64,000 bases of DNA from an uncultured delta proteobacterium (lineage in GTDB: Bacteria > Myxococcota_A > Polyangia > Polyangiales > B10-G4): NCBI GenBank assembly GCA_963727445.1, contig CAVSGI010000009.1, positions 704,001 through 768,000 on the forward strand. Direction: 5' to 3'. Under the pieces are notes generated by a model that ran no database searches, was not told the DNA's origin, and saw nothing but the letters and a program-made list of their open reading frames with translations. Within the stretch, counting starts at the first letter, position 1, and each line of letters opens with the position of its first letter. Positions 23,832 through 40,907 of this stretch are shown one piece after another. A program made the position numbers and the translations under genes.

Positions 23832-24956
23832 TCAGGCCGCAATCTCGGCCGCGATCCGCCGCGCTTCGATCCCGATCTCGCGCAGCATACCGGTGGGCGC
23901 GACGTAGAAGCCGCAGAAGTAGAGCCCCGGGGCGGCTGCGCAGCCGCTCTTCTTCGGGTTCCCGCGCTCGTCACAGACCTGGTCTTCGCCCGCGAGCATG
24001 TCGGTGATCTTCGGCTGGTAGCCGGTCGCGAGCACCACCGCGGCGAACTCGTCTGTCACGCCGTCGACGAAACGTACGCCGTTCTCGGTGAAAGACTCGA
24101 TCCCCTGGCGCACGGTGATGTGACCTTCGCGGATGAGTGCGATGGTGCCGATGTCGAGGAGGGGGATGCGGCCGTCGCGGCGGATCTGGGTGTTCGGGCC
24201 GTAGGGGAGCTTCCTCAAGCCCAGCTTCTCGATGTCGCCGACGAACGCTCGTACCAGCGGTTTCGAAAGGAAGTCCGCGACGCGCATGGGTAGGACGCTC
24301 ATCGCGATGCCGACGCCGAGCACGGGCACGCCGAAGAAATCCCGCGGCACCACGTTCACCCGGCTCCGTACCGAGATCGTGGGGCGCGCGCCGTGTTCGT
24401 GGAGATCGATCGCGATCTCACCACCCGAGTTGCCGAAGCCCACCACCAGCACTCGCTCGCCGCGCCACCGCTCACCGTCCGCGTATTTCGAGCTGTGAAC
24501 GATCTCGCCGCGAAAGCTCTCCATCTTCGGCCAGCTCGGCACGTGGGGGACGCGGGTGTAGCCGGTGGCGAAGACGACGTTCGTCGCTGCAAAGGAGCCC
24601 TGGGACGTCTCCACCTCGAAGCCATCGCCGTCGCGCCGCACCGAGGTGACCTCGTGCCCGAAGCGCGGCGCGAGGCCCTGCACCCGCGCGTACCGCTCGA
24701 GGTACGCGACCACCTGCTCCCGCGGCGGATAGCGCGGCGCGTCAGCTGGCCAGGGCATGAAGGGAAGCGCCGACAGGCCCTTGGTGGTGTGCAGGTGCAG
24801 ACGTCGGTAGTGATGCCGCCACGCGGTTCCGACGACCTCCGTCTTCTCGAGCAGTACGTGCTCGACGCCTTCGTGCTTCAGGCAAGCCGAGGTCGCGAGA
24901 CCCGCGGCGCTCGCCCCGATCACGACGGTGTTCGTTCGCTCCACTTCATCCAGCAT
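23832..24956 (-). CDS. Flavin-containing monooxygenase (FMO/YUCCA-like)
   Basis: IGASAAG FAD motif, LHLHT, FRGEIVHSSKY (FxGxxxHxxxY), GFGNSG, LATGY. Confidence 0.9.
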   Translation of the reverse strand: MLDEVERTNTVVIGASAAGLATSACLKHEGVEHVLLEKTEVVGTAWRHHYRRLHLHTTKGLSALPFMPWPADAPRYPPREQVVAYLERYARVQGLAPRFGHEVTSVRRDGDGFEVETSQGSFAATNVVFATGYTRVPHVPSWPKMESFRGEIVHSSKYADGERWRGERVLVVGFGNSGGEIAIDLHEHGARPTISVRSRVNVVPRDFFGVPVLGVGIAMSVLPMRVADFLSKPLVRAFVGDIEKLGLRKLPYGPNTQIRRDGRIPLLDIGTIALIREGHITVRQGIESFTENGVRFVDGVTDEFAAVVLATGYQPKITDMLAGEDQVCDERGNPKKSGCAAAPGLYFCGFYVAPTGMLREIGIEARRIAAEIAA

Positions 24957-26394: not shown

Positions 26395-28323
26395 TCAGAT
26401 CGCGCCCAGGTCCTCGGCCGGCTCGGGGACGGGCAGGCTGCGGGCGTCGAGGTTCGAGCCGTTGTCGACGTACTGAACCCCGTCGGAAATTCGCCCGGTG
26501 TCGAAGGACGGCTCCGCGACGCACGCGCCGATCTCACACGAACCCACCACGCCCGTCGAAGCGTCGGCGTCCGCGCCTTCTCCGACGTAGAGGCCACAAA
26601 GCGCTGCGCCTCGGATGTCGAAAGCGCTCAGCCGAAGGGTTGCACCGGTGTAGGCCGCGGCGCCGTGAGCGAAGCTGGCGCCGTCCGTACAACCGTCTTC
26701 CGCGCACGTCCACGGATCGATCTGGTCGACGCGTAGGTCGTTCACGGTGAGCGTGGCGCGCGAGGTCGCGAGAGCGCCGAAGCCATGCGCCCTCTGCACA
26801 CGCACGCGGTCGAGCTCGACGCTCGCCCCCGTCTGGGCATGCACGCCGTGGCCCCAGGCGCCGGAGGCGCCGTCGCCTGCGAGGCCCTGAAACACCAGGT
26901 CCTCGAGCGTGGCCTGGCTTCCTTCGTCCCCGATCAACAGCCCGAAGCCGCCCCCGTCGACGACCGCCACCCGGGCTCCGGTGAGCTCGCTGGCTTCGAA
27001 GGCCTCGATCGCGCGCGAGGAGGAGCCATCCAGATCGGCGCCGCTCACTCCGTCGATCACGACGTCTGCGAAGCTGATCTGGGCGTCTGGTCCGTGCGCG
27101 GACGCGCCGCAGACGCGGGAGCGCGCCACGCTCACGCGCTCGAGCTCCAGTCGCCCTCCGAGCTGCGACGAAAGACTGCGGCCGCTCAGCTGGTCGACCA
27201 TGCGTGACTGCACGTCCTCGATCCGCGCGTCCCGTAGATGCAAGACCGCCGCCGTCCCTTCCACACCGGCGCCCACTTCGTGGACATGGCCGATGAACGC
27301 CCGCTCGACCGTCACCTCCGCGCCTTCGCTCATCTCGAGCCCTCGGCCGAAGCGCCCGGCGCGCGCCGTCTCCTCGTAGGGGCTGACATCTCGAACCGAG
27401 ACGTCCGTGAGACTCGCTCGCGTCCCTTCGTTTCCGATCCAGATCCCGGTGGCGATCACCCGCTCGATGACCAACCCGTCGATCATGGCGTTGGCGCCGT
27501 ACTCGACCTGGAGGCCCCGCCCGAGCCCGGTCATGGGATCGCTCCGCATGTCGCGGACGGCGATGCGATGACCCTGAAGCTCGCCGTAGCTCACCAGCAA
27601 GCCGAAGCCCTGTGCGTCGTGAATCTCGACGTTTTCGAGGACGCCGGTGCCTTCGAGGACGTGGACGCCGAGCTTGTCGGCCTCGCCGATGGTGATGTTG
27701 CGGAGGCCGCCCCCCGCGCCGCGAATGAGCAGGGTGGGGACGTCGAGCGGCGCGGTGGTGGTGAGCACGGTGTCGCGCACGCACGCTCCCCAAAGGGTCG
27801 CGCCGTCGTCGAGGTAGACCGCCTCGTCGTAGTGCCCCGCCGCGAGGGCGACCACTCCGCCGGACGCTGCAGCGAGGCCGTCCCAGATGCTGCCGAAGGG
27901 GTTTGCGCGGGTCCCGTCGCCTCCGGTGGCGCCGGCGCGCACGTACACGACCGTCCCATCCGTCGGCAGATCGGGCGCCCATCCGTCGGCCGGGCAGGCG
28001 GTGCCGATGTCCTCGCATCCGGTGGCGCCGGGTGATTGCATTTGACCGGCTGGGCAATCGGCGGGCCCGCCTCCGCCGAAGGGCAGGCAGATCGTCAGGG
28101 CCTCACCCACCGTCGACTCCGTCCACCCGCTGGGACAAGGCGTCATGGCGGGGAGGGAGGGTGCGGCGGCAGGCGAGGTATCACCGCCTCCATCGCCTGC
28201 ATCCGTGCCGCCGTCACCGTCTCCCGCATCGTCCGAGCACCCCACCGTGGTCGCGAGCACGGCCACGAGGAGAGCGAAGGAGCGCCGGCAGAGAGGAGCC
28301 AATCCACCTCGAGAGGACCACAC
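26395..28323 (-). CDS. Right-handed beta-helix repeat lipoprotein
   Basis: Lipobox TVGC; VVYVRAGATGGDGTRANPFGSI motif; about 55-aa GRGL repeats; paralog of 58070-60353. Confidence 0.75.
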   Translation of the reverse strand: MWSSRGGLAPLCRRSFALLVAVLATTVGCSDDAGDGDGGTDAGDGGGDTSPAAAPSLPAMTPCPSGWTESTVGEALTICLPFGGGGPADCPAGQMQSPGATGCEDIGTACPADGWAPDLPTDGTVVYVRAGATGGDGTRANPFGSIWDGLAAASGGVVALAAGHYDEAVYLDDGATLWGACVRDTVLTTTAPLDVPTLLIRGAGGGLRNITIGEADKLGVHVLEGTGVLENVEIHDAQGFGLLVSYGELQGHRIAVRDMRSDPMTGLGRGLQVEYGANAMIDGLVIERVIATGIWIGNEGTRASLTDVSVRDVSPYEETARAGRFGRGLEMSEGAEVTVERAFIGHVHEVGAGVEGTAAVLHLRDARIEDVQSRMVDQLSGRSLSSQLGGRLELERVSVARSRVCGASAHGPDAQISFADVVIDGVSGADLDGSSSRAIEAFEASELTGARVAVVDGGGFGLLIGDEGSQATLEDLVFQGLAGDGASGAWGHGVHAQTGASVELDRVRVQRAHGFGALATSRATLTVNDLRVDQIDPWTCAEDGCTDGASFAHGAAAYTGATLRLSAFDIRGAALCGLYVGEGADADASTGVVGSCEIGACVAEPSFDTGRISDGVQYVDNGSNLDARSLPVPEPAEDLGAI

Positions 28324-28366
28324 CGAGCGTCGATAGACAACGACGGATCGAGCAGCGGCGCTCGCG

Positions 28367-30667
28367 CTATCGCGCTTCCGTGAAATCGATCCGCGCGAGC
28401 CAGTCGTCGGCGTGGACCTGATCGCCGACCGTCGCGTCGCTGCGCGCGTGAAAGGCCAGGACCACGGATCGGGCCCGTTCGAGGTCGCCCTCGGCGAACA
28501 GCGCGGTGATCAGCATGCGCTTCGACTCGCGGCGGAGGAGCTCGGTAGGCAGCCCGCGCGCTTCGGCGTCCTCGATCCGCGGCAGCGCCAGATCGTAGCG
28601 CCCGCTCGCCATGAGCTGTCGCGCTTCGAGGTAGGGGCCGAGCCCGTCGAGGCGGCTCGCGCTCAGCTCGCGGTCCTGGGAGACGGCGACGGCGCGATCG
28701 GCCGGGACGCCATCGTGTCCGACGAGCATGTCGAGGATCCGCCGGCCGTCCGCTTCGGGCATCTCCGCGGCAGCGATGAGCTTCACTTCGAGGTTGCGGC
28801 GCGCGTCCTCGGCCTGGGGCCGGTTCAACAGGGAGCGATAGAGCGCGGCGGCTTCTTCTCGGCGCCCTTCGATCCACGCGGCGTCGGCCACCGATTCGGT
28901 GCCGAGGACGATGTAGGGCTCGGGCGCCGGCGGGTCCCCTTCGAGGGACCGGAGCGTGGCGTCGGCGTCGGCGTCGCGACCGTCGCGAGCGAGCGCGCCT
29001 GCATATCGGGCCCGCGTCGCGACGTCGCCGGGATCGATCGCGAGGAGCTCCTCACAGGTGGTCACCGCCGCCGGGGCGTCGCCGGCTGCGAGATCCTCTC
29101 CGAGTCGTTGCTTCAGTCGGGCGACCTCGTGGGGGCACACCGCGGAGAAGATGCTCACCCGCTCGAAGCGAACGCGCGCGAGCGCCAGCGCTTCGTCGGG
29201 AAGCGGCTCCTCGTCGAGGCGCGCGCGCCACCCGCGTTCGAGCTCGGGGAGGGGGACGCCCACGGCGGCTTCGATGTCGCCCGTGCGGTACGCCTCTCGC
29301 ACCACCTCCGCGCCGTGCTCCTCGAGGAGGTAGCGGACGAAGGAGCCGGACACGGTGTACGCGTTGCTCGCGGGCTGCCCCAGGAACGACAGCCCGAAGA
29401 CCGCCGAGAGCGGCGGCATCAGATCCAGCTCGACCATCGCCTTGGCCCACTGGTGGGGCGTGAGGCCGTCGCGCTCGTCCCAAGCGACGGCGACCGCGAC
29501 TCCTTCGATGAGCGACGGGTCCGGCAGATAGCCGCCGAGCTGCCCGCCGACGCGGAACGGACCGGAGGCCGTCTGGCCCGCCACCACGTGCGTGATCTCG
29601 TGAAAGAGCACGGGATGCGGCCAGCCCGAGAGCTGGAGATAGACCTCGTTCCGCCACGGTTCCGCGATGTAGGTGCGCCCCGCGCCCATGTAGCGACGCT
29701 TCTCCTCCTGGTTGCGGAAGAAGAAGGCGGTGACCATCTCGCGTTGATGAACGCCCAGGGTCTCTTCGGCCTCGGTGACGCGAAAGTCGCAGTCCGCAAC
29801 GAGGCGCGTGAGCTCTTCGCGCCGCATCTCCCGCGGTGCGTGCACGATGCAGCGCTCGCCGCGCTCGGTCGCGCCTAGCTCTTCCGCGATGAAGCGGGCA
29901 GAGGAGCGATGCCCGAGCTCTTCTCCGTAGAAGTGCACCAGCGCCGCGCCAGTGAGAAGCGCGAGGCCGAGTGCCGTGGCCAGGGGCGCGCGCAAGAGGC
30001 CGCCGAGGGCGGGGCGCCCGTCGATCTTCGAGGTGCCCAGGTGCACCAGTAGGAAGGTCCCCGCGAGCAGCGCGAGCGTGCCGGCGCGAAAGGTGACGTA
30101 GGCGAGCGGGATGCTCGTGCCTTCGTCGTAGATCGTGCCGGGAAACCAACCGGCGAAGAGGCCGTAGACGAAGATCGCCGGGGAGCTCCAGAAGCGATAG
30201 AGGCCGGTGGCGACCGCCGCGAGGGGCAGGGCGAGGGCCAACGCCGTGGCGAGACGGGGCTGGCGGAGCAGGATCGCCGGGAGCGTTCCGAGGATCGCGG
30301 CGGCGTAGCAGCCGAGGACCGGACCGAGGAGCATGAACGCGACGCCCATGCCCGGCGTGCACTGCTTGATCCTCAGCAGCGCGTCGAGCCAGAGGATCAG
30401 GATGGGCGCGCCCACCACGAAGGTCGCCATCTTCAGCGCGACCAACATCGCGGAGCCGGCGGCGATCGCCGCCCCGCGCCGACGCCGCGCGACCACCAGG
30501 CGGGCGGCGGCCACCGCGACGAAGGGCGGCAACAGAACGCCGAGCACCAGCCCACTCTCCACACCGTGAACGCCGGTGAGGGGCGAGACGCACATGCCCA
30601 GGCCCGCGATTGCGGAGACGATCAGCGCGACCCGCGCGCTCGTCGGGCCGAGTGCCTCGCGCATCAA
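28367..30667 (-). CDS. Multi-TM membrane protein with gluzincin (HExxH...E) domain and TPR-like C-terminus
   Basis: About 7 N-terminal TM segments; FHEITHVV ... LIEGVAV; helical repeats. Confidence 0.72.
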   Translation of the reverse strand: MMREALGPTSARVALIVSAIAGLGMCVSPLTGVHGVESGLVLGVLLPPFVAVAAARLVVARRRRGAAIAAGSAMLVALKMATFVVGAPILILWLDALLRIKQCTPGMGVAFMLLGPVLGCYAAAILGTLPAILLRQPRLATALALALPLAAVATGLYRFWSSPAIFVYGLFAGWFPGTIYDEGTSIPLAYVTFRAGTLALLAGTFLLVHLGTSKIDGRPALGGLLRAPLATALGLALLTGAALVHFYGEELGHRSSARFIAEELGATERGERCIVHAPREMRREELTRLVADCDFRVTEAEETLGVHQREMVTAFFFRNQEEKRRYMGAGRTYIAEPWRNEVYLQLSGWPHPVLFHEITHVVAGQTASGPFRVGGQLGGYLPDPSLIEGVAVAVAWDERDGLTPHQWAKAMVELDLMPPLSAVFGLSFLGQPASNAYTVSGSFVRYLLEEHGAEVVREAYRTGDIEAAVGVPLPELERGWRARLDEEPLPDEALALARVRFERVSIFSAVCPHEVARLKQRLGEDLAAGDAPAAVTTCEELLAIDPGDVATRARYAGALARDGRDADADATLRSLEGDPPAPEPYIVLGTESVADAAWIEGRREEAAALYRSLLNRPQAEDARRNLEVKLIAAAEMPEADGRRILDMLVGHDGVPADRAVAVSQDRELSASRLDGLGPYLEARQLMASGRYDLALPRIEDAEARGLPTELLRRESKRMLITALFAEGDLERARSVVLAFHARSDATVGDQVHADDWLARIDFTEAR

Positions 30668-30686
30668 CCCAGTCGGTCCCCGGCGC

Positions 30687-33059
30687 TCACGCAGGAGGCG
30701 CCGCGGGTGCCTGCGCGTTTTCCGCCGTGTCCAGGTCGAGCGCCAGCTCGAGCACCTCGTCCACCTTCGAGACGAAGTGGATGATGAGGCCCTTGCGGAT
30801 CTGCTCCGGCACCTCGTCCATGTCGGGCTCGTTTCGCTTCGGCAGGATGACGTGCTTGATGCCGGCGCGGTGCGCGGCGAGGCACTTGGCCTTGATCCCG
30901 GTCACCTTCAGCACCGTGCCGCGGAGCGTGACCTCGCCGCTCATGGCGACATCGGGGCGCACCCGCATACGCGTCAGCATCGACGAGAGCGCGACGAAGA
31001 TCGCGATGCCCGCCGCGGCGCCGTCCTTGGGCACCGCACCCTGGGGCAGGTGGATGTGCACGTCGATCTTGGTCAGGAAGTCCTCGGGCAGGCCGAGCTT
31101 GTCCGCGCGCGCGCGGATGTAGGTGAAGGCGGTCGCGACCGACTCCTTCATGATGCCGCCGACGCTCCCGGTGAGGTGCACCTTGCCAGTGCCGGGCATG
31201 CGCTCGGCCTCGACGAACATCAGGTCGCCGCCTGAGGGCGTCCACGAGAGGCTGGTCGCGACCCCGGGGCGCCCGGTCTTCTCGATGGACTGCGGCTTCA
31301 CTCGGGCGGGACCGAGCACGTCCTCGATGTATTCGGGATCCGCCAGCACGTGCACGTCCTCGCCGTCGGCCAGACGAACGGCGACCGCACGACAGACGCT
31401 CGCGACCTTCTGTTCGAGATTGCGGACGCCGGCTTCACGCGTGTACTCCTCGATGAGCCGAACGGTGGCTTCGTCGGTGAACTCCAGGCGCTCCGGCGAC
31501 AATCCGTGCTCCGAGAGCTGCTTGGGGATCAGGAACTGCTGCGCGATGGCCATCTTCTCCTCGCGCGTGTAGCCGGGCAGCTCGATCAACTCCATCCGGT
31601 CGAGCAGGGCGCGCGGGATGGTGTCCTTGCGGTTCGCCGTGGCGATGAACATCACCTGCGACAGATCGAAGGGCACCTCGAGGTAGTGATCGACGAACTC
31701 GAAGTTCTGCTCGGGGTCGAGGACCTCGAGGAGCGCCGAGCCCGGGTCGCCGCGGAAGTCGTTGCCGAGCTTGTCGACCTCGTCGAGGAGCATCACCGGG
31801 TTGCGGGACCCCGCCTTCTTGAACGCGCCGATGATGCGTCCGGGGAAGGAGCCCACGTAGGTCCGGCGATGGCCGCGGATCTCGGCCTCGTCCTGAACGC
31901 CGCCCAGGGAGACGCGCGTGAAGTTGCGCCCCGTGGCGCGCGCGATCGATTTGCCGAGGCTCGTCTTGCCGACGCCGGGCGGGCCGACGAAGCAGAGGAT
32001 CGGCCCCTTCTTGTCGCTGCGCAGCTTGCGCACCGCGATGTACTCGAGGATGCGCCGCTTGATCTTGTCGAGGCCGTGGTGGTCCTCGTCGAGCACGCGC
32101 CTCGCTTCGGCCACGTCGAGGCGGTCGGCGGTCACCTTGCCCCAGGGCAGGTCCGCGAGCCACTCCACGTACTGGCGTGACACGTGATACTCGTTGCCCG
32201 CCGGCGACATCGACCGCATGCGCGAGAGCTGCTTCTTGGCCGCGCGCTCGGCCTCCGGGGGAAGCTCTGCGCGCGCCAGTCGGTCGCGCAGGTTCTCGAT
32301 ATCGTCCTCGTCGTCCGCGTCCTCGCCGAGCTCGCGGCGGATCGCCTTCATCTGCTGGCGCAGGAGATACTCGCGCTGTGAACGCGACATCTCCTCCTGC
32401 ACCATGGTGTTGATCTCCTTCTTGACGCGGTGCACCTCGTTCTGGCGCCCCACCAGCTCGGAGACCTTGCGGAGCCGCTCGCGCACGTCGAGAATCTCCA
32501 GCACCGCCTGCTTGGACTCGGTGTTCACCGGCAGGTTGCTCGCGACGAGATCGGCGAGGGAGCCCGGGTCCTGCACGTTGTCGAGGACCTGACTGGTCTC
32601 GCGCGACTGACCCGGCAGGAAACCGGAGAGCTTGCGCATCGACTCGCGCAGGCTCTCCGCCAGCGCGTCGATCTCCACGTCGCGCATCGGCGTCTCGTGA
32701 ATGCGGCTCACCCGCGCGCGCATGCACGGCGAGCGCGTGATGCCTTCGAGGATCTGCATGCGCGCGACGCCCTGGAGCACGACGCTGTAGTTGCCGCTGC
32801 TGAGGCGGATCACCTTGAGCACGCGTGCGACCGTGCCGAGCTGGTGGACCTCCTCGAAGGTCGGGTCTTCGAACTCGAGCTTCTTCTGAGCGACGACGCC
32901 GATGGTGGGGCGCTCCTCGCCGAAGGCTTCTTCGATCAGACGCACCGAACGGGGGCGGCCCACGTTGACGGGCACCACCGAGGCGGGAAAGAGAACCGAG
33001 TTGCGAAGGGGGAGGATCGGCAGCACTGCTTCGCCGCCGGGGATGACCGAGTCACTCAT
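30687..33059 (-). CDS. lon: Lon (endopeptidase La) homolog with catalytic Ser replaced by Ala
   Basis: LPLRNSVLFP N-domain, GPPGVGKT, IRGHRRTYVG, LLDEVDK; protease motif reads PKDGAAAG instead of PKDGPSAG. Confidence 0.93.
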   Translation of the reverse strand: MSDSVIPGGEAVLPILPLRNSVLFPASVVPVNVGRPRSVRLIEEAFGEERPTIGVVAQKKLEFEDPTFEEVHQLGTVARVLKVIRLSSGNYSVVLQGVARMQILEGITRSPCMRARVSRIHETPMRDVEIDALAESLRESMRKLSGFLPGQSRETSQVLDNVQDPGSLADLVASNLPVNTESKQAVLEILDVRERLRKVSELVGRQNEVHRVKKEINTMVQEEMSRSQREYLLRQQMKAIRRELGEDADDEDDIENLRDRLARAELPPEAERAAKKQLSRMRSMSPAGNEYHVSRQYVEWLADLPWGKVTADRLDVAEARRVLDEDHHGLDKIKRRILEYIAVRKLRSDKKGPILCFVGPPGVGKTSLGKSIARATGRNFTRVSLGGVQDEAEIRGHRRTYVGSFPGRIIGAFKKAGSRNPVMLLDEVDKLGNDFRGDPGSALLEVLDPEQNFEFVDHYLEVPFDLSQVMFIATANRKDTIPRALLDRMELIELPGYTREEKMAIAQQFLIPKQLSEHGLSPERLEFTDEATVRLIEEYTREAGVRNLEQKVASVCRAVAVRLADGEDVHVLADPEYIEDVLGPARVKPQSIEKTGRPGVATSLSWTPSGGDLMFVEAERMPGTGKVHLTGSVGGIMKESVATAFTYIRARADKLGLPEDFLTKIDVHIHLPQGAVPKDGAAAGIAIFVALSSMLTRMRVRPDVAMSGEVTLRGTVLKVTGIKAKCLAAHRAGIKHVILPKRNEPDMDEVPEQIRKGLIIHFVSKVDEVLELALDLDTAENAQAPAAPPA

Positions 33060-33135
33060 GAGGCGTGTAGTGTCGCTGAGTTACGCGTTTCTTCAACCAT
33101 CGCCCTTTGCCAACCGCCATTCACCTGTTACAAGT

Positions 33136-33177
33136 TTGACCTCCCAGGTAGGGGTGTAGGATAAATACCTACAGGTA
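33136..33177. promoter_or_regulatory. Promoter/operator region between the divergent lon and small gene
   Basis: TTGACC at 33136; inverted repeat TGTAGG-ATAAATA-CCTACA 33155-33173 overlapping TACCT-AC-AGGTA 33166-33177; locally AT-rich. Confidence 0.55.
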
Positions 33178-33198
33178 ACCCCGCCGAGGTCGTACAGA

Positions 33199-33396
33199 AT
33201 GAACAAGACGTCGCTCACCCTCCTGGCTCTGACCCCGCTACTCCTCGCTGGCTGTCATGGGGCCATCCTCGGAAACCTCCTGGTCCTGGGGATCACCGTG
33301 GGCATCTTCGTCGGCACCCTGGGCCTCGGTCGCGTCACCGCCACCGGCGCCGCGCGCGCCCGCAACGCCGAGACGAGCACCAGCTCGCACGGCTGA
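33199..33396 (+). CDS. Small membrane lipoprotein-like protein (65 aa)
   Basis: GAGG RBS; MNK + hydrophobic + LAGC, then a second hydrophobic stretch; GC3-rich codons. Confidence 0.65.
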   Translation: MNKTSLTLLALTPLLLAGCHGAILGNLLVLGITVGIFVGTLGLGRVTATGAARARNAETSTSSHG

Positions 33397-33408
33397 GGCG
33401 AGCACCGC

Positions 33409-35703
33409 TCAGAGGGCGGCGCGTGCGCTCTCGAGCGCGTCGGCCATCTCCGACGCCGAAGCGAAGCGCGCTTCCTGATCACGGCTGAGCGCGCGGAGGA
33501 CGACCTCCTCCACGGGGACCGGGATGTCCGGGCAATGGGCGCGAAGGTCCGGCTCGGGGCCGTTCGTGATCGCGTAGAGGAGGGCGTGGACGACCTCGGC
33601 CACGAAGGGGGGCTGTCCCGCGAGGAGCTCGAAGAGCACCACGCCGAGGGCGTAGATGTCGGTGCGGGCGTCGACGTCGTCGGGCCGCCTGATCTGTTCG
33701 GGGGCCATGTAGAAGGGCGTGCCCACGATCTGGCCCGTCTTGGTCTGGCCGCCGTCTCCATGTTTGGAGATGCCGAAGTCGAGGACCTTCACGCCGCGAT
33801 TCGACACGAAGATGTTGCCCGGTTTGAGGTCGCGGTGGATGACCCCCGCCTCGTGGGCTGCGGCGATGCCCCGGGCGGCCTCGGTGCAGATCTCGAGGGC
33901 GCGCTCGACGCGGAGCGCTTCCCCTTCGGCGAGCATCGCCTCGAGCGATCGTCCTTCGAGTCGCTCCATCACGATGTAGGGCTCGTCTCCGTGCATCCCG
34001 GCGTCATAGATGTCCACGACGTTCGGGTGCTTGATGCGACCGCACGCCCGCGCCTCGGCGAGGAAGCGCTTGCAGTGGGTGGAGTCTCCGCAGACCGTTC
34101 GCTTGAGCACCTTCACCGCCACATCGCGGCCGGTGATCAGATGCCGGCCGGCGTGAACGACGCCCATCCCACCGATACCCAGCACGTCGCCGATCTCGAT
34201 CTTGTCGTCCAGCGTCTGACCTTCGCGAAGGGGTACCGACTGAATCAAGGGTGGCGGCACCTCCACGTCCAGGGCCGACATGGTCTCCGCCAGGACGGGG
34301 CTGTCGGCGTCGATGCGATTCGGGGTGATGGACTCCAGCGTCGCGCGGGCGCGGGAGCGTTCGACCTTCGCTCGGCCCGCGTCCCCCAGGGCGTCGTAGG
34401 CGTCGGCGAGTAGGCCGCGCGCTTGCCCCAGGTCGTAGCACGCACCCAACAGCTTCCAGGCGCGCACGGCGCGCTTGGCGCTGCTCACCGCGGAGGTCAC
34501 CTCGCCATGTGCGAGGTGCAACCGGGTCCGCGCCGTGGCGGCCTGCGCCTGGATCCCCAGCGTCCCGAATCGTGCCGCCGATTCGGCGAGCTCCTGGGCG
34601 GCGGCTTCTGCCGCTTCGAGGTCCTCGAGCTCGACGCAAGCGGCCACCAGGGCGGGGAGGTGACGCGTTCGCCCGTGCGGGTCGTGCGCGAGGTCGTTCA
34701 GCTTGGCCTCGCACAGCTCACGGGCGGTCTTGGCGTCCCCGCGCTCGAGGGCGAGTAGCGCGAGGCCAGGCATCGGATCGAGTCCGAGCTCCTCGGCGTC
34801 GTGGAACGCGGCCTCGGCCTGGTCGAGGGCTCCGCCTTCGAGCCGAAGGTAGCCGAGCTCGCTATGGGCGAACGCTTTCGCGATCGTGAATCGATGCTTC
34901 TCGAAAACCACGAGGGCTTCGCGCACTTGCTCCTCCGCGCGCTGGTGGTCCCCCACGAAGCGCAGCAGCTCGGCTCGATGAACGCGGCACAGACCGGGGA
35001 AGCCGCAGACGCGTCGTTGGTCGATCCAGGCCCCGGCGGCCTCCGTCCACTCGAGCGCGCGCTCCAGGTCGCCCAGGTTGCGACAGAAGTCGATGGTGTT
35101 GCAGTAGATCATCGCGCCGGTGATGGGGCGGGTTCGGTCTCGGTTGACCAGGAGCATCGCCTCGTCCACGTCGGCGGTCGCTTCTTCGACGCGACCCTTT
35201 CGCATCATCAGCGCTGCTCGACGACTGAGGGCGAGCGCTTCGTTGTCTTCGTCGTCGTGCTTGCGTGCGAGGGCGTGTCCCCGCTCCACCATCTCCACCG
35301 CCTGGTCAATCTGACCGCCGATCACCGCGAGGAACCCCTGCAGGATGGCGGCCCGGGCGTGGCCGGCGCCTTCCGGGGCTTCCGCCGCCATCCGGAAGAT
35401 GCGCCGAGCCCACCCCTTGGCCTGCGCCGTGTCTCCCACGACGCCGTGGTAGTCGGCGACGTCGGCGGCGACCCGGATGGCGTCGTGGATCCGACCCTCT
35501 TCCATGTAGGCGTCGTACGCGCGCGCAAAGAGGTCCGCAGGCTTTTCACCGATGAGCCATGCGTCCATCGCCATGCGTTCGAGATCTTCGGAGCCGAGCC
35601 TGTGTCCTGCCTCTTCCGCCGCCCGATAGAAGGCGTAGGCCTCCTCCCACGCCCTGGCCTCGTGGGCTTGCCTACCTTTCTGCGAAGCCAGCTCCCCGCT
35701 CAC
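33409..35703 (-). CDS. TPR-like sensor domain fused to a C-terminal Ser/Thr kinase
   Basis: About 460-aa helical N-terminus; LGIGGMG, VAVK, HRDLKPGN, DFG, GTPFYMAPE. Confidence 0.88.
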   Translation of the reverse strand: MSGELASQKGRQAHEARAWEEAYAFYRAAEEAGHRLGSEDLERMAMDAWLIGEKPADLFARAYDAYMEEGRIHDAIRVAADVADYHGVVGDTAQAKGWARRIFRMAAEAPEGAGHARAAILQGFLAVIGGQIDQAVEMVERGHALARKHDDEDNEALALSRRAALMMRKGRVEEATADVDEAMLLVNRDRTRPITGAMIYCNTIDFCRNLGDLERALEWTEAAGAWIDQRRVCGFPGLCRVHRAELLRFVGDHQRAEEQVREALVVFEKHRFTIAKAFAHSELGYLRLEGGALDQAEAAFHDAEELGLDPMPGLALLALERGDAKTARELCEAKLNDLAHDPHGRTRHLPALVAACVELEDLEAAEAAAQELAESAARFGTLGIQAQAATARTRLHLAHGEVTSAVSSAKRAVRAWKLLGACYDLGQARGLLADAYDALGDAGRAKVERSRARATLESITPNRIDADSPVLAETMSALDVEVPPPLIQSVPLREGQTLDDKIEIGDVLGIGGMGVVHAGRHLITGRDVAVKVLKRTVCGDSTHCKRFLAEARACGRIKHPNVVDIYDAGMHGDEPYIVMERLEGRSLEAMLAEGEALRVERALEICTEAARGIAAAHEAGVIHRDLKPGNIFVSNRGVKVLDFGISKHGDGGQTKTGQIVGTPFYMAPEQIRRPDDVDARTDIYALGVVLFELLAGQPPFVAEVVHALLYAITNGPEPDLRAHCPDIPVPVEEVVLRALSRDQEARFASASEMADALESARAAL

Positions 35704-35793: not shown

Positions 35794-36333
35794 ATGGGGT
35801 CCAACCTAACAAAATTAGAAAATGAGCCCCTGGACCGAACGGATGCTCAATTGGCGGACGCGCTCCAGCGCGATGCCAAGCAGAGCCTCGCGGATCTGGG
35901 AGCGTTGGTCGGCCTCACTGCCCCCGCAGTGCACGAACGGGTGCGCAAGCTCGAACAGCGCGGCGTGATCCGCGGCTACCACGCACTGCTCGACGGAAAG
36001 GCCGTTGGTCTCGACATCACGGCCTTCGTCGGAGTGGGCGTGCGCGATCCCGCATGCGTGGCGGGGGTCGAGGCATGGGTCGTGGAGCGGCCCGAGATCC
36101 TCGAGTGCCATCACGTGACCGGCAACTACACGCTTCTGCTCAAGGCGAAGGTGAAGAACACCGGCGCCCTCGAGACGCTGATCAACGCCACACGCGCGCG
36201 CGAAGGCGTGACCGGCACCGACACGATGGTCGTGTTCTCGACGAGCGTCGAGCGCATCCCCGTCGCGCTCGACGTCCCCGATGCCGAGCCCGGTGTTCGG
36301 CGTCGCGGCCGGCCCCGCAAGAAGGCGAGCTGA
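35794..36333 (+). CDS. Lrp/AsnC family transcriptional regulator
   Basis: [43 protein letters not shown]. Confidence 0.92.
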
Positions 36334-36356
36334 GGCCCTTCTCACAGAGAGTGGAG

Positions 36357-40906
<4,550 letters not shown>

Positions 40907-40907
<1 letters not shown>

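Follow-up and report, generated by a model that had tools for sequence, protein, structure and literature searches.

We report here on a LonA gene, designated lon4, that lies on the minus strand of a 64,000-nucleotide (nt) stretch of DNA (the window: positions 704,001 to 768,000 of contig CAVSGI010000009.1, assembly GCA_963727445.1) from an uncultured delta proteobacterium of the order Polyangiales. With moderate confidence, we propose from its sequence and relatives that Lon4 is an intact and selectively maintained LonA paralogue, predicted to be unable to cut by the Ser-Lys mechanism, which likely serves as an ATP-driven unfoldase or holdase working with a membrane metallopeptidase encoded directly downstream. 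Alignments and trees further indicate that the gene belongs to an order-wide (Polyangiales-type) clade of fourth Lon proteins, in which the catalytic nucleophile was lost many times and not once. The features of lon4 on which the following analysis relies are listed below.

30687..33059, minus strand: lon4, a full-length LonA paralogue of 790 amino acids with no internal stop (open reading frame list, TIGR00763, Pfam, and alignment to 7p6u).
32451..33026, minus strand: N-terminal Lon substrate-binding domain, residues 12-203 (PF02190, LON_substr_bdg, E 2e-47).
31584..31997, minus strand: AAA+ ATPase core, residues 355-492, with Walker A, pore-loop, Walker B, and sensor (PF00004, E 3e-25).
30738..31334, minus strand: Lon_C protease-fold domain, residues 576-774 (PF05362, E 3.9e-76).
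31008..31028, minus strand: active-site loop KDGAAAG, residues 678-684 (codons and HMMER alignment).
31014-31016, minus strand: codon GCG of A682, the catalytic Ser position.
31017-31019, minus strand: codon GCC of A681, the Pro position.
30885..30902, minus strand: T720-G-I-K-A-K725, with the dyad Lys codon AAG at 30885-30887 and the Thr codon ACC, canonically the first Gly of GG, at 30900-30902.

Lon4 scored 924.6 bits against TIGR00763, "endopeptidase La" (cut-off 608), and Pfam returned LON_substr_bdg, AAA, Lon_lid (PF22667), and Lon_C, the three-domain architecture of LonA. The ATPase motifs, given here under their usual names, were Walker A GPPGVGKT (359-366), pore-loop TYVG (400-403), Walker B DE (426-427), and TAN (474-476), together with two conserved Arg residues (R488 in LLDR and R546 in GVR); these motifs, including the pore-loop Tyr and the sensor Asn, were invariant in 18 of 18 orthologues. 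When solved LonA chains were searched with HMMER, the best relative was Thermus Lon 7p6u (758.8 bits across residues 13-774). In that alignment, "pkdgaaagia" of Lon4 stood opposite "pkdgpsagit" of 7p6u, so that both Ser and Pro were replaced by Ala, and "lkvtgikakclaah" stood opposite "lpiggvkekllaah", with GG replaced by TG and the dyad Lys K725 retained. The original prediction, made from the letters of the window, had described the loop KDGAAAG with GCG in the place of Ser, a preceding Ala, and TG before the dyad Lys, in an uninterrupted frame with intact Walker A/B and pore-loop motifs. Each of these statements held: the minus-strand codons ccc aag gac ggc gcc gcg gcg ggc (P-K-D-G-A-A-A-G) confirmed the replaced Ser to the base, and the other points followed from the 7p6u alignment and the orthologues. 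No alternative Ser, Thr, or Cys was found inside the active-site motif.

The defining feature of LonA is the sequence PKDGPSA, which surrounds the Ser of the Ser-Lys dyad (PMC2605481). Lon4 has the three-domain architecture, the ATPase and translocation motifs (Walker A/B, pore loop, sensors, and Arg finger), and the dyad Lys of LonA, and reads PKDGAAAG in place of PKDGPSA(G). Because the catalytic Ser is absent, we class Lon4, judged by its sequence, as a LonA by descent; it is a non-peptidase homologue derived from LonA and does not qualify as an endopeptidase La. MEROPS lists "non-peptidase homologues" in family S16. Public records name the relatives of Lon4 "endopeptidase La", a label that probably misstates the enzymatic activity of the Ser-less members.

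The KDGAAAG motif was common to three independent metagenome proteins (P0001-P0003), which are approximately 90% identical to Lon4 over the protease domain, and to the orthologue in a genome of the same genus (G001, 84% identity). Since these four independent assemblies carry the same motif, a base-call error at the Ser codon is in practice excluded, in agreement with the original argument that such an error was less likely, and the close orthologues do not all read KDGPSAG, the outcome that would have spoken against the original prediction. In six public metagenome runs (5-8% of sampled words each), four of which were assembled, the short contigs came mostly from other organisms and lay on the conserved ATPase part, and there was no usable coverage of 31014-31016; none of the runs listed was of RNA. 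The ratio of nonsynonymous to synonymous substitution rates (dN/dS, Nei-Gojobori) between Lon4 and its G001 orthologue was 0.13 for the N domain, 0.12 for the AAA domain, and 0.20 for the protease domain; the corresponding values for the clpX-linked paralogue in the same comparison were 0.09, 0.07, and 0.13. A pair of fourth Lon genes from another genus, one Ser-less and one with Ser, gave 0.05-0.09, with protease-domain values of 0.07-0.09, and the protease domain of the closest paralogue in that genus gave 0.026. These results demonstrated that the protease domain of Lon4 is somewhat relaxed yet clearly constrained, and that the gene is under purifying selection (0.12-0.20 within its own genus); the original prediction had suggested such a dN/dS test.

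The source genome contains four full LonA genes, and the three besides lon4 carry KDGPSAG; one of them directly follows clpX, which is the classical housekeeping arrangement. Thus, judging by their motifs, the other active lon genes that the original prediction had proposed looking for appear to exist, as three canonical, active-looking paralogues. Lon4 is only approximately 55% identical to the nearest paralogue, the three other Lon types match at approximately 54%, 48%, and 44%, and the C14-type paralogue is the sister of the fourth-Lon clade.

An orthologue of Lon4 was present in most of 40 genomes of the same order (24 family codes), at 55-84% identity. We fetched 30 fourth-Lon loci, and the motif was readable in 29 of them (locus L032 is cut). 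Among the database proteins, a member that carries Ser, P0100, comes from Sandaracinus amylolyticus, a culturable species of the Polyangiales. Twelve of the 29 readable loci lacked Ser and 17 carried it, and the Ser-less forms comprised AAA, PAA, PAG, PAQ, PAL, PGH, and APGT; the motif was likewise mixed among the 120 best database matches to the protease domain. A FastTree phylogeny was computed with the motif columns removed from 176 rows, namely the 29 loci, 104 hits of at least 700 amino acids, three paralogues, and 40 representatives of 50%-identity clusters. The fourth Lon proteins formed a clade of 135 rows with a support of 100, consisting of 72 rows without and 63 rows with Ser, and Ser was found in all 43 outgroup rows. 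In a wider sample, the Ser motif was present in 141 of the 150 best general LonA representatives, and the pattern did not resolve the other nine, which were truncated or extended proteins. At least 16 state changes at the nucleophile were required on the FastTree phylogeny, 13 of them forced by well-supported branches, and an IQ-TREE phylogeny of 111 rows thinned at 93% identity gave 17 changes, with 13 again forced. A single origin of the Ser-less rows was rejected, as the best tree under this constraint was 2027 log-likelihood units worse (approximately unbiased [AU] test, p 2e-56). Rooted parsimony allowed solutions from 14 losses with three regains to seven losses with ten regains, and required 23 losses when regain was forbidden. 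The conserved Ser-less clade envisaged in the original prediction was therefore found in part: Ser-less subclades exist, with all members Ser-less in a six-row subclade around Lon4 and 16 Ser-less members in a 17-row subclade, whereas across the whole paralogue clade the state flips at least 13-17 times.

Two members of the clade deserve separate mention. The most degenerate was locus L026 (genome G013), in which the loop reads ADAPGTG and the Lys, Gly, and Ser of KDGPSAG are all changed, in an open frame with intact Walker A/B motifs. In another genome (G002:C31:75710-77960), the fourth-Lon match consisted of two pieces that overlap and differ in frame (query 1-407 and 391-751, 72-73% identity), which represents a frameshift or an assembly error.

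The codons at the nucleophile position recorded part of this history. In all 11 canonical paralogue genes examined, the catalytic Ser codon was AGC or AGT, and in the 29 fourth-Lon genes with nucleotide sequence the codon at this position was AGY in ten, TCN in seven, GCN (Ala) in ten, and GGN (Gly) in two. The ten AGY carriers were five of the six basal members, two members of family code f14, and three of f8, and the 12-row subclade with Lon4 contained GCN, TCN, and GGN only. The observed codons form the single-step chain AGC-GGC-GCC-TCC, and AGY and TCN cannot be interconverted by single steps that keep Ser. In a tree computed under LG+C20+F+G4 with ultrafast bootstrap, the fourth-Lon clade had a support of 97/95, and TCN arose five times in all 200 bootstrap trees. 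Because the passage between AGY and TCN needs a non-Ser intermediate, and Gly and Ala were the only other residues seen, these codons indicate that Ser was most likely regained from Ala in at least some of the members that carry it. Among the basal KDGPSAG members of family code f11, the Ser codon was TCC in L030 and AGC in L031 and L033, so that here, too, either an intermediate codon other than Ser or a double change is implied.

Conservation in the clade was then assessed site by site, at the protease-domain positions with at least 93% conservation among 42 canonical Lon sequences. Each of these positions stayed conserved apart from 637, where M and L are swapped, P788 of the C-terminal tail, and, in the active site, P681, S682, A683, A705, T707, and G720; T707 was mostly Ser in the clade, and G720 was replaced by Thr, Ser, Asp, or Glu. 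The dyad Lys K725 was kept in 71 of the 72 Ser-less rows. When changes per column were counted on a tree of 103 clade rows, the nucleophile column showed 17 changes (68th percentile; the median column had ten), the G720 column 43 (96th percentile), and the K678, D679, G680, G684, and K725 columns one to four each. Since it changed 17 times and held only Ser, Ala, or Gly, the nucleophile position behaves as an ordinary small-residue site would, unlike a catalytic position. When divergence in the protease domain was divided by that in the AAA domain, the median ratio was 1.49 in Ser/Ser pairs (112 pairs) and 1.37 in Ser-less pairs (259 pairs), a descriptive comparison of non-independent pairs; the similarity of the two values suggests that the domain is constrained irrespective of the nucleophile. 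Across 13 independent pairs, loss of Ser showed no coupling with changes at positions 681, 707, or 720 (median sign-test p 0.6-1).

The gene directly downstream of lon4 is its putative partner, and its features are as follows.

28367..30667, minus strand: partner gene, predicted to encode a protein of 765/766 amino acids with seven transmembrane (TM) helices, a gluzincin-type HExxH...E domain, and C-terminal tetratricopeptide repeats (TPR) (open reading frame, Pfam TPR, synteny, and AlphaFold [AF2] model).
30668..30686, minus strand: spacer of 19 nt from the lon4 stop TGA to the TTG/ATG start of the partner, with no terminator-like site.
29930..30643, minus strand: seven predicted TM helices, residues 8-245 (AF2 model and positive-inside count).
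29504..29602, minus strand: putative zinc-site motif H355-E-I-T-H359 with E387 (in IEGVAVA), invariant in 18 of 18 orthologues.

A scan of 28000-33600 for promoters and terminators found no promoter-like site, and no terminator in the spacer between lon4 and the partner gene. A partner homologue was located directly downstream of the fourth Lon gene, on the same strand, in 17 of the 18 order genomes whose flanks were examined, which represent many families; it was not found in L051. The residues H355, E356, H359, and E387 were invariant in all 18 orthologues, with the Glu 28 residues past the second His. No curated peptidase family was assigned to the partner by Pfam and NCBIfam, which gave TPR families only, a profile search of the PDB with its sequence found nothing below E 0.1, and its public clusters carry the name "hypothetical protein". 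The AF2 model (predicted local distance difference test [pLDDT] 90.7, predicted template modeling score [pTM] 0.88) showed seven long N-terminal helices (8-24, 35-62, 69-97, 104-132, 136-160, 187-210, and 227-245), an alpha/beta domain, and a helical repeat domain, with residues 165-175 forming a beta hairpin. Loop Lys and Arg (K+R) counts over the 18 orthologues were 10.1 inside and 2.7 outside for seven TM helices in the N-in/C-out orientation, and 6.9 and 5.9 for an eight-TM alternative. Because these counts favor seven TM helices in the N-in/C-out orientation, the predicted location of both the peptidase domain and the TPR domain is the periplasm. Modeled alone (pLDDT 92.3), domain 250-505 matched M9 collagenase peptidase domains (7esi, E 5.3e-6, TM-score 0.64), with weaker matches to M1 peptidases; the whole model gave only weak Foldseek matches, including BepA 6ait and 6sar at E 6-7e-3. 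With HExxH, a Glu ligand, and a thermolysin-like fold, the partner is predicted to be a gluzincin metallopeptidase (clan MA).

Of 301 genomes sampled from the phylum, 181 carried a member of the partner family. Outside the order, no Lon gene was found within approximately 1.3-4 kb upstream of the partner homologue in any of 20 genomes (six of the same class and 14 of the same phylum; two stretches were cut by contig ends). Thus, the pairing of the fourth Lon with the partner is specific to the order, and because it is already present in basal, canonical-looking members (L052-L054), it predates the loss of Ser. Within the order, in the small genomes G004 and G026 (both of family code f4), a partner homologue was present, no fourth Lon was found (best Lon match at most 53%), and no Lon match lay near the partner; therefore, the pair is not universal in the order. 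In three loci outside the order (f33; L080:1175-3499, L082:635-3211, and L083:1108-3402), a HEAT-repeat protein of 765-859 amino acids precedes the partner homologue on the same strand, in the place of Lon.

A complex prediction for the single domain pair of Lon4 residues 1-310 and partner residues 1-265 (18-row alignments each) returned a score of 0.00 and gave no answer. A split FtsH-like machine, in which a cytoplasmic AAA+ protein feeds a zinc peptidase on the same side of the membrane, is unlikely because the catalytic domain of the partner is predicted, from the seven TM helices and the K+R count, to lie across the membrane.

Taken together, these results favor the reading of Lon4 as a non-cutting unfoldase or holdase associated with the membrane metallopeptidase. 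Lon4 would still form an ATP-hydrolyzing hexamer, which would grip and translocate substrates without cleaving them, and the substrates held or released may then fall to the three active Lon paralogues or other proteases. The function selected across the fourth-Lon clade would be independent of peptide-bond cleavage by Lon and tied to the partner. Candidate roles are the handling of cytoplasmic parts of envelope or membrane proteins that the periplasmic partner cuts, the dislocation of fragments of such partner-cut envelope proteins, and the control of the partner itself. The original prediction had proposed a natural pseudoprotease acting as a chaperone, a substrate trap, a DNA-binding protein, or a hetero-oligomeric regulator. 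The pseudoprotease part is supported by the missing nucleophile, the conserved motor and domain, purifying selection, the three active-looking paralogues, and the existence of a Ser-less clade, and the computations singled out none of the four options.

Several observations weigh against this reading. The protease domain is indeed relaxed to some extent, since its dN/dS exceeded that of the other domains or of the closest paralogue by a factor of 1.6-3. Ser is kept, or has been regained, in about half of the clade; proteolysis may still matter in some lineages, and in others the Ser-less state could be recent and mildly deleterious. The near-universal retention of the dyad Lys is unexplained if catalysis is irrelevant, and this residue may be structural. 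Finally, given the predicted topology of the partner, direct hand-over of substrates from cytoplasmic Lon4 to its peptidase site is unlikely.

A bolder reading extends to the whole clade, and we put it forward tentatively, as a possibility that is more doubtful than the role proposed for Lon4. This LonA paralogue clade may have been freed from the need to cut, with the nucleophile repeatedly lost and regained (AGY Ser to Gly to Ala to TCN Ser) and with the Lys, the chamber, and the motor kept. It would then represent an AAA+ machine that switches naturally between "degrade" and "hold" and is firmly coupled to a membrane metallopeptidase facing the periplasm, an undescribed two-compartment module of envelope proteostasis.

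An unlikely alternative is that Lon4 is a regulatory subunit of mixed hexamers, co-assembling with an active Lon paralogue and tuning its activity or specificity, as ClpR does with ClpP. The coexistence of three active-looking paralogues, including the sister C14 type, and the conservation of the ring-building positions of the protease domain are consistent with co-assembly, and FtsH offers a known case of inactive protease paralogues working alongside active ones (FtsHi; PMC8197885); however, the modest identity to the nearest paralogue and the possession of its own conserved operon partner point to a separate job. We attach similarly little weight to an evolutionary toggle, in which the active site is kept ready and lineages switch adaptively between a degrading (Ser) and a holding (Ala or Gly) state. 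Such a toggle would account for the 17 state changes with 3-10 regains under parsimony, for the contrast between AGY in 11 of 11 canonical genes and AGY, GGN, GCN, and TCN in the clade, with TCN arising repeatedly in 200 of 200 bootstrap trees, and for the retained Lys and remaining loop. However, neutral drift among small residues at an unimportant site predicts the same pattern, loss of Ser was not coupled to other active-site changes, and the domain was equally constrained in both states.

It is very improbable that Lon4 remains a protease through a non-canonical nucleophile, such as Thr720, five residues before K725, or a Lys-activated water. The retention of K725 in nearly all Ser-less members would fit such a mechanism, as would Thr or Ser at position 720 in 44 of the 72, but this position is Asp or Glu in 21 of the 72, varies in Ser-bearing members too, and is among the fastest sites, uncoupled from Ser loss. 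In addition, Ser-to-Ala is the standard inactivating change of Lon: E. coli Lon S679A is reported to be catalytically inactive (PMC8244335), and the solved chain 7ypj_A, when aligned with Lon4, reads KDGPAAG at the same motif position. An artefact of sequencing or assembly, or a gene in decay on its way to becoming a pseudogene, has a negligible chance of explaining Lon4, even in a draft source genome (9.47 Mb, 27 contigs, 85.6% complete), given four independent assemblies with the same motif, 790 open codons, the low dN/dS, and an old and widespread clade.

The next gene upstream of lon4 (33409-35703, likewise on the minus strand) is separated from it by a gap of 349 nt and encodes a 764-amino-acid protein that combines a MalT-like TPR region with a Ser/Thr kinase domain at the C terminus. 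A Ser/Thr kinase was considered as a conserved third gene and rejected: kinase matches in 13 of 18 loci had approximately 30% identity and lay at varying distance and strand, and they were treated as unrelated kinases. The upstream kinase gene is thus probably not a conserved neighbor of lon4. Downstream of the partner, a right-handed beta-helix protein (26395-28323, minus strand, PF13229) and a flavin monooxygenase-like gene (23832-24956, minus strand) were found, neither of which was seen beside the pair in other genomes. At 36054-40907 on the plus strand, the window encodes the glutamate synthase large subunit (1617 amino acids; GATase_2, Glu_syn_central, Glu_synthase, and GXGXG).

Lon is among the best-studied ATP-dependent proteases, and its proteolysis-independent roles are usually probed with engineered Ser-to-Ala mutants; the fourth-Lon clade can be regarded as nature's repeated version of this experiment. 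Its matched Ser and Ala orthologues, which occur even inside one genus (as in pairs of the G029/G039 type, with a TCN-coded Ser), allow the question of what a non-cutting Lon motor does to be addressed, and the clade also offers a conserved, uncharacterized membrane peptidase partner for study. In the literature searched, which did not extend to subscription journals and MEROPS, no description of a natural Ser-less LonA or of such a clade was found. What this work adds is the comparison of rates site by site, the rejection of a single origin by the AU test, the finding that the domain is equally constrained with and without Ser, and the AGY/GGN/GCN/TCN codon series, which indicates regain.

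Comparison with known systems places Lon4 among several partial relatives. Canonical LonA (MEROPS S16; Thermus thermophilus Lon 7p6u and E. coli Lon) shares its N-domain/AAA+/Lon_C architecture, ATPase motifs, and dyad Lys, whereas Lon4 differs in having Ala for Ser and for the preceding Pro, and TG for GG. The engineered protease-dead traps (S679A and 7ypj_A) carry the same substitution at the same position; in Lon4, however, the change is natural, conserved in its clade, and accompanied by additional substitutions in the active-site loop. Mitochondrial LONP1 has a chaperone-like activity that requires ATP hydrolysis and is independent of its protease activity (PMC8368198), and this is in that respect like the ATP-dependent, proteolysis-independent activity of a Lon hexamer that we propose for Lon4; LONP1, however, keeps its Ser and is also a protease, whereas proteolysis by Lon4 is predicted to be absent. 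ClpR is a pseudoprotease-type paralogue within an AAA+ protease system and acts with ClpP. The plastid FtsHi proteins are conserved FtsH paralogues without catalytic residues (PMC8197885). FtsHi and ClpR resemble Lon4 in that an ATPase or a ring scaffold is kept and the catalytic residues are gone, but they belong to a different protease family, and FtsHi lost its site once, whereas the Lon4 clade flips repeatedly. The peptidase domain of the partner resembles those of M9 collagenases in its gluzincin HExxH...E site and its model match to 7esi, and the partner resembles BepA, a periplasmic HExxH peptidase with TPR, in its combination of a peptidase domain and TPR and in a weak structural match; it differs from both in its predicted seven-TM anchor, its lack of a Pfam or NCBIfam peptidase family, and its lack of a PDB relative by sequence. 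LonC of Meiothermus taiwanensis (PMC3391209) is a member of the Lon family in which one of the two activities is naturally disabled; it keeps the Ser-Lys protease without ATP-powered unfolding, and would thus be the mirror image of Lon4.

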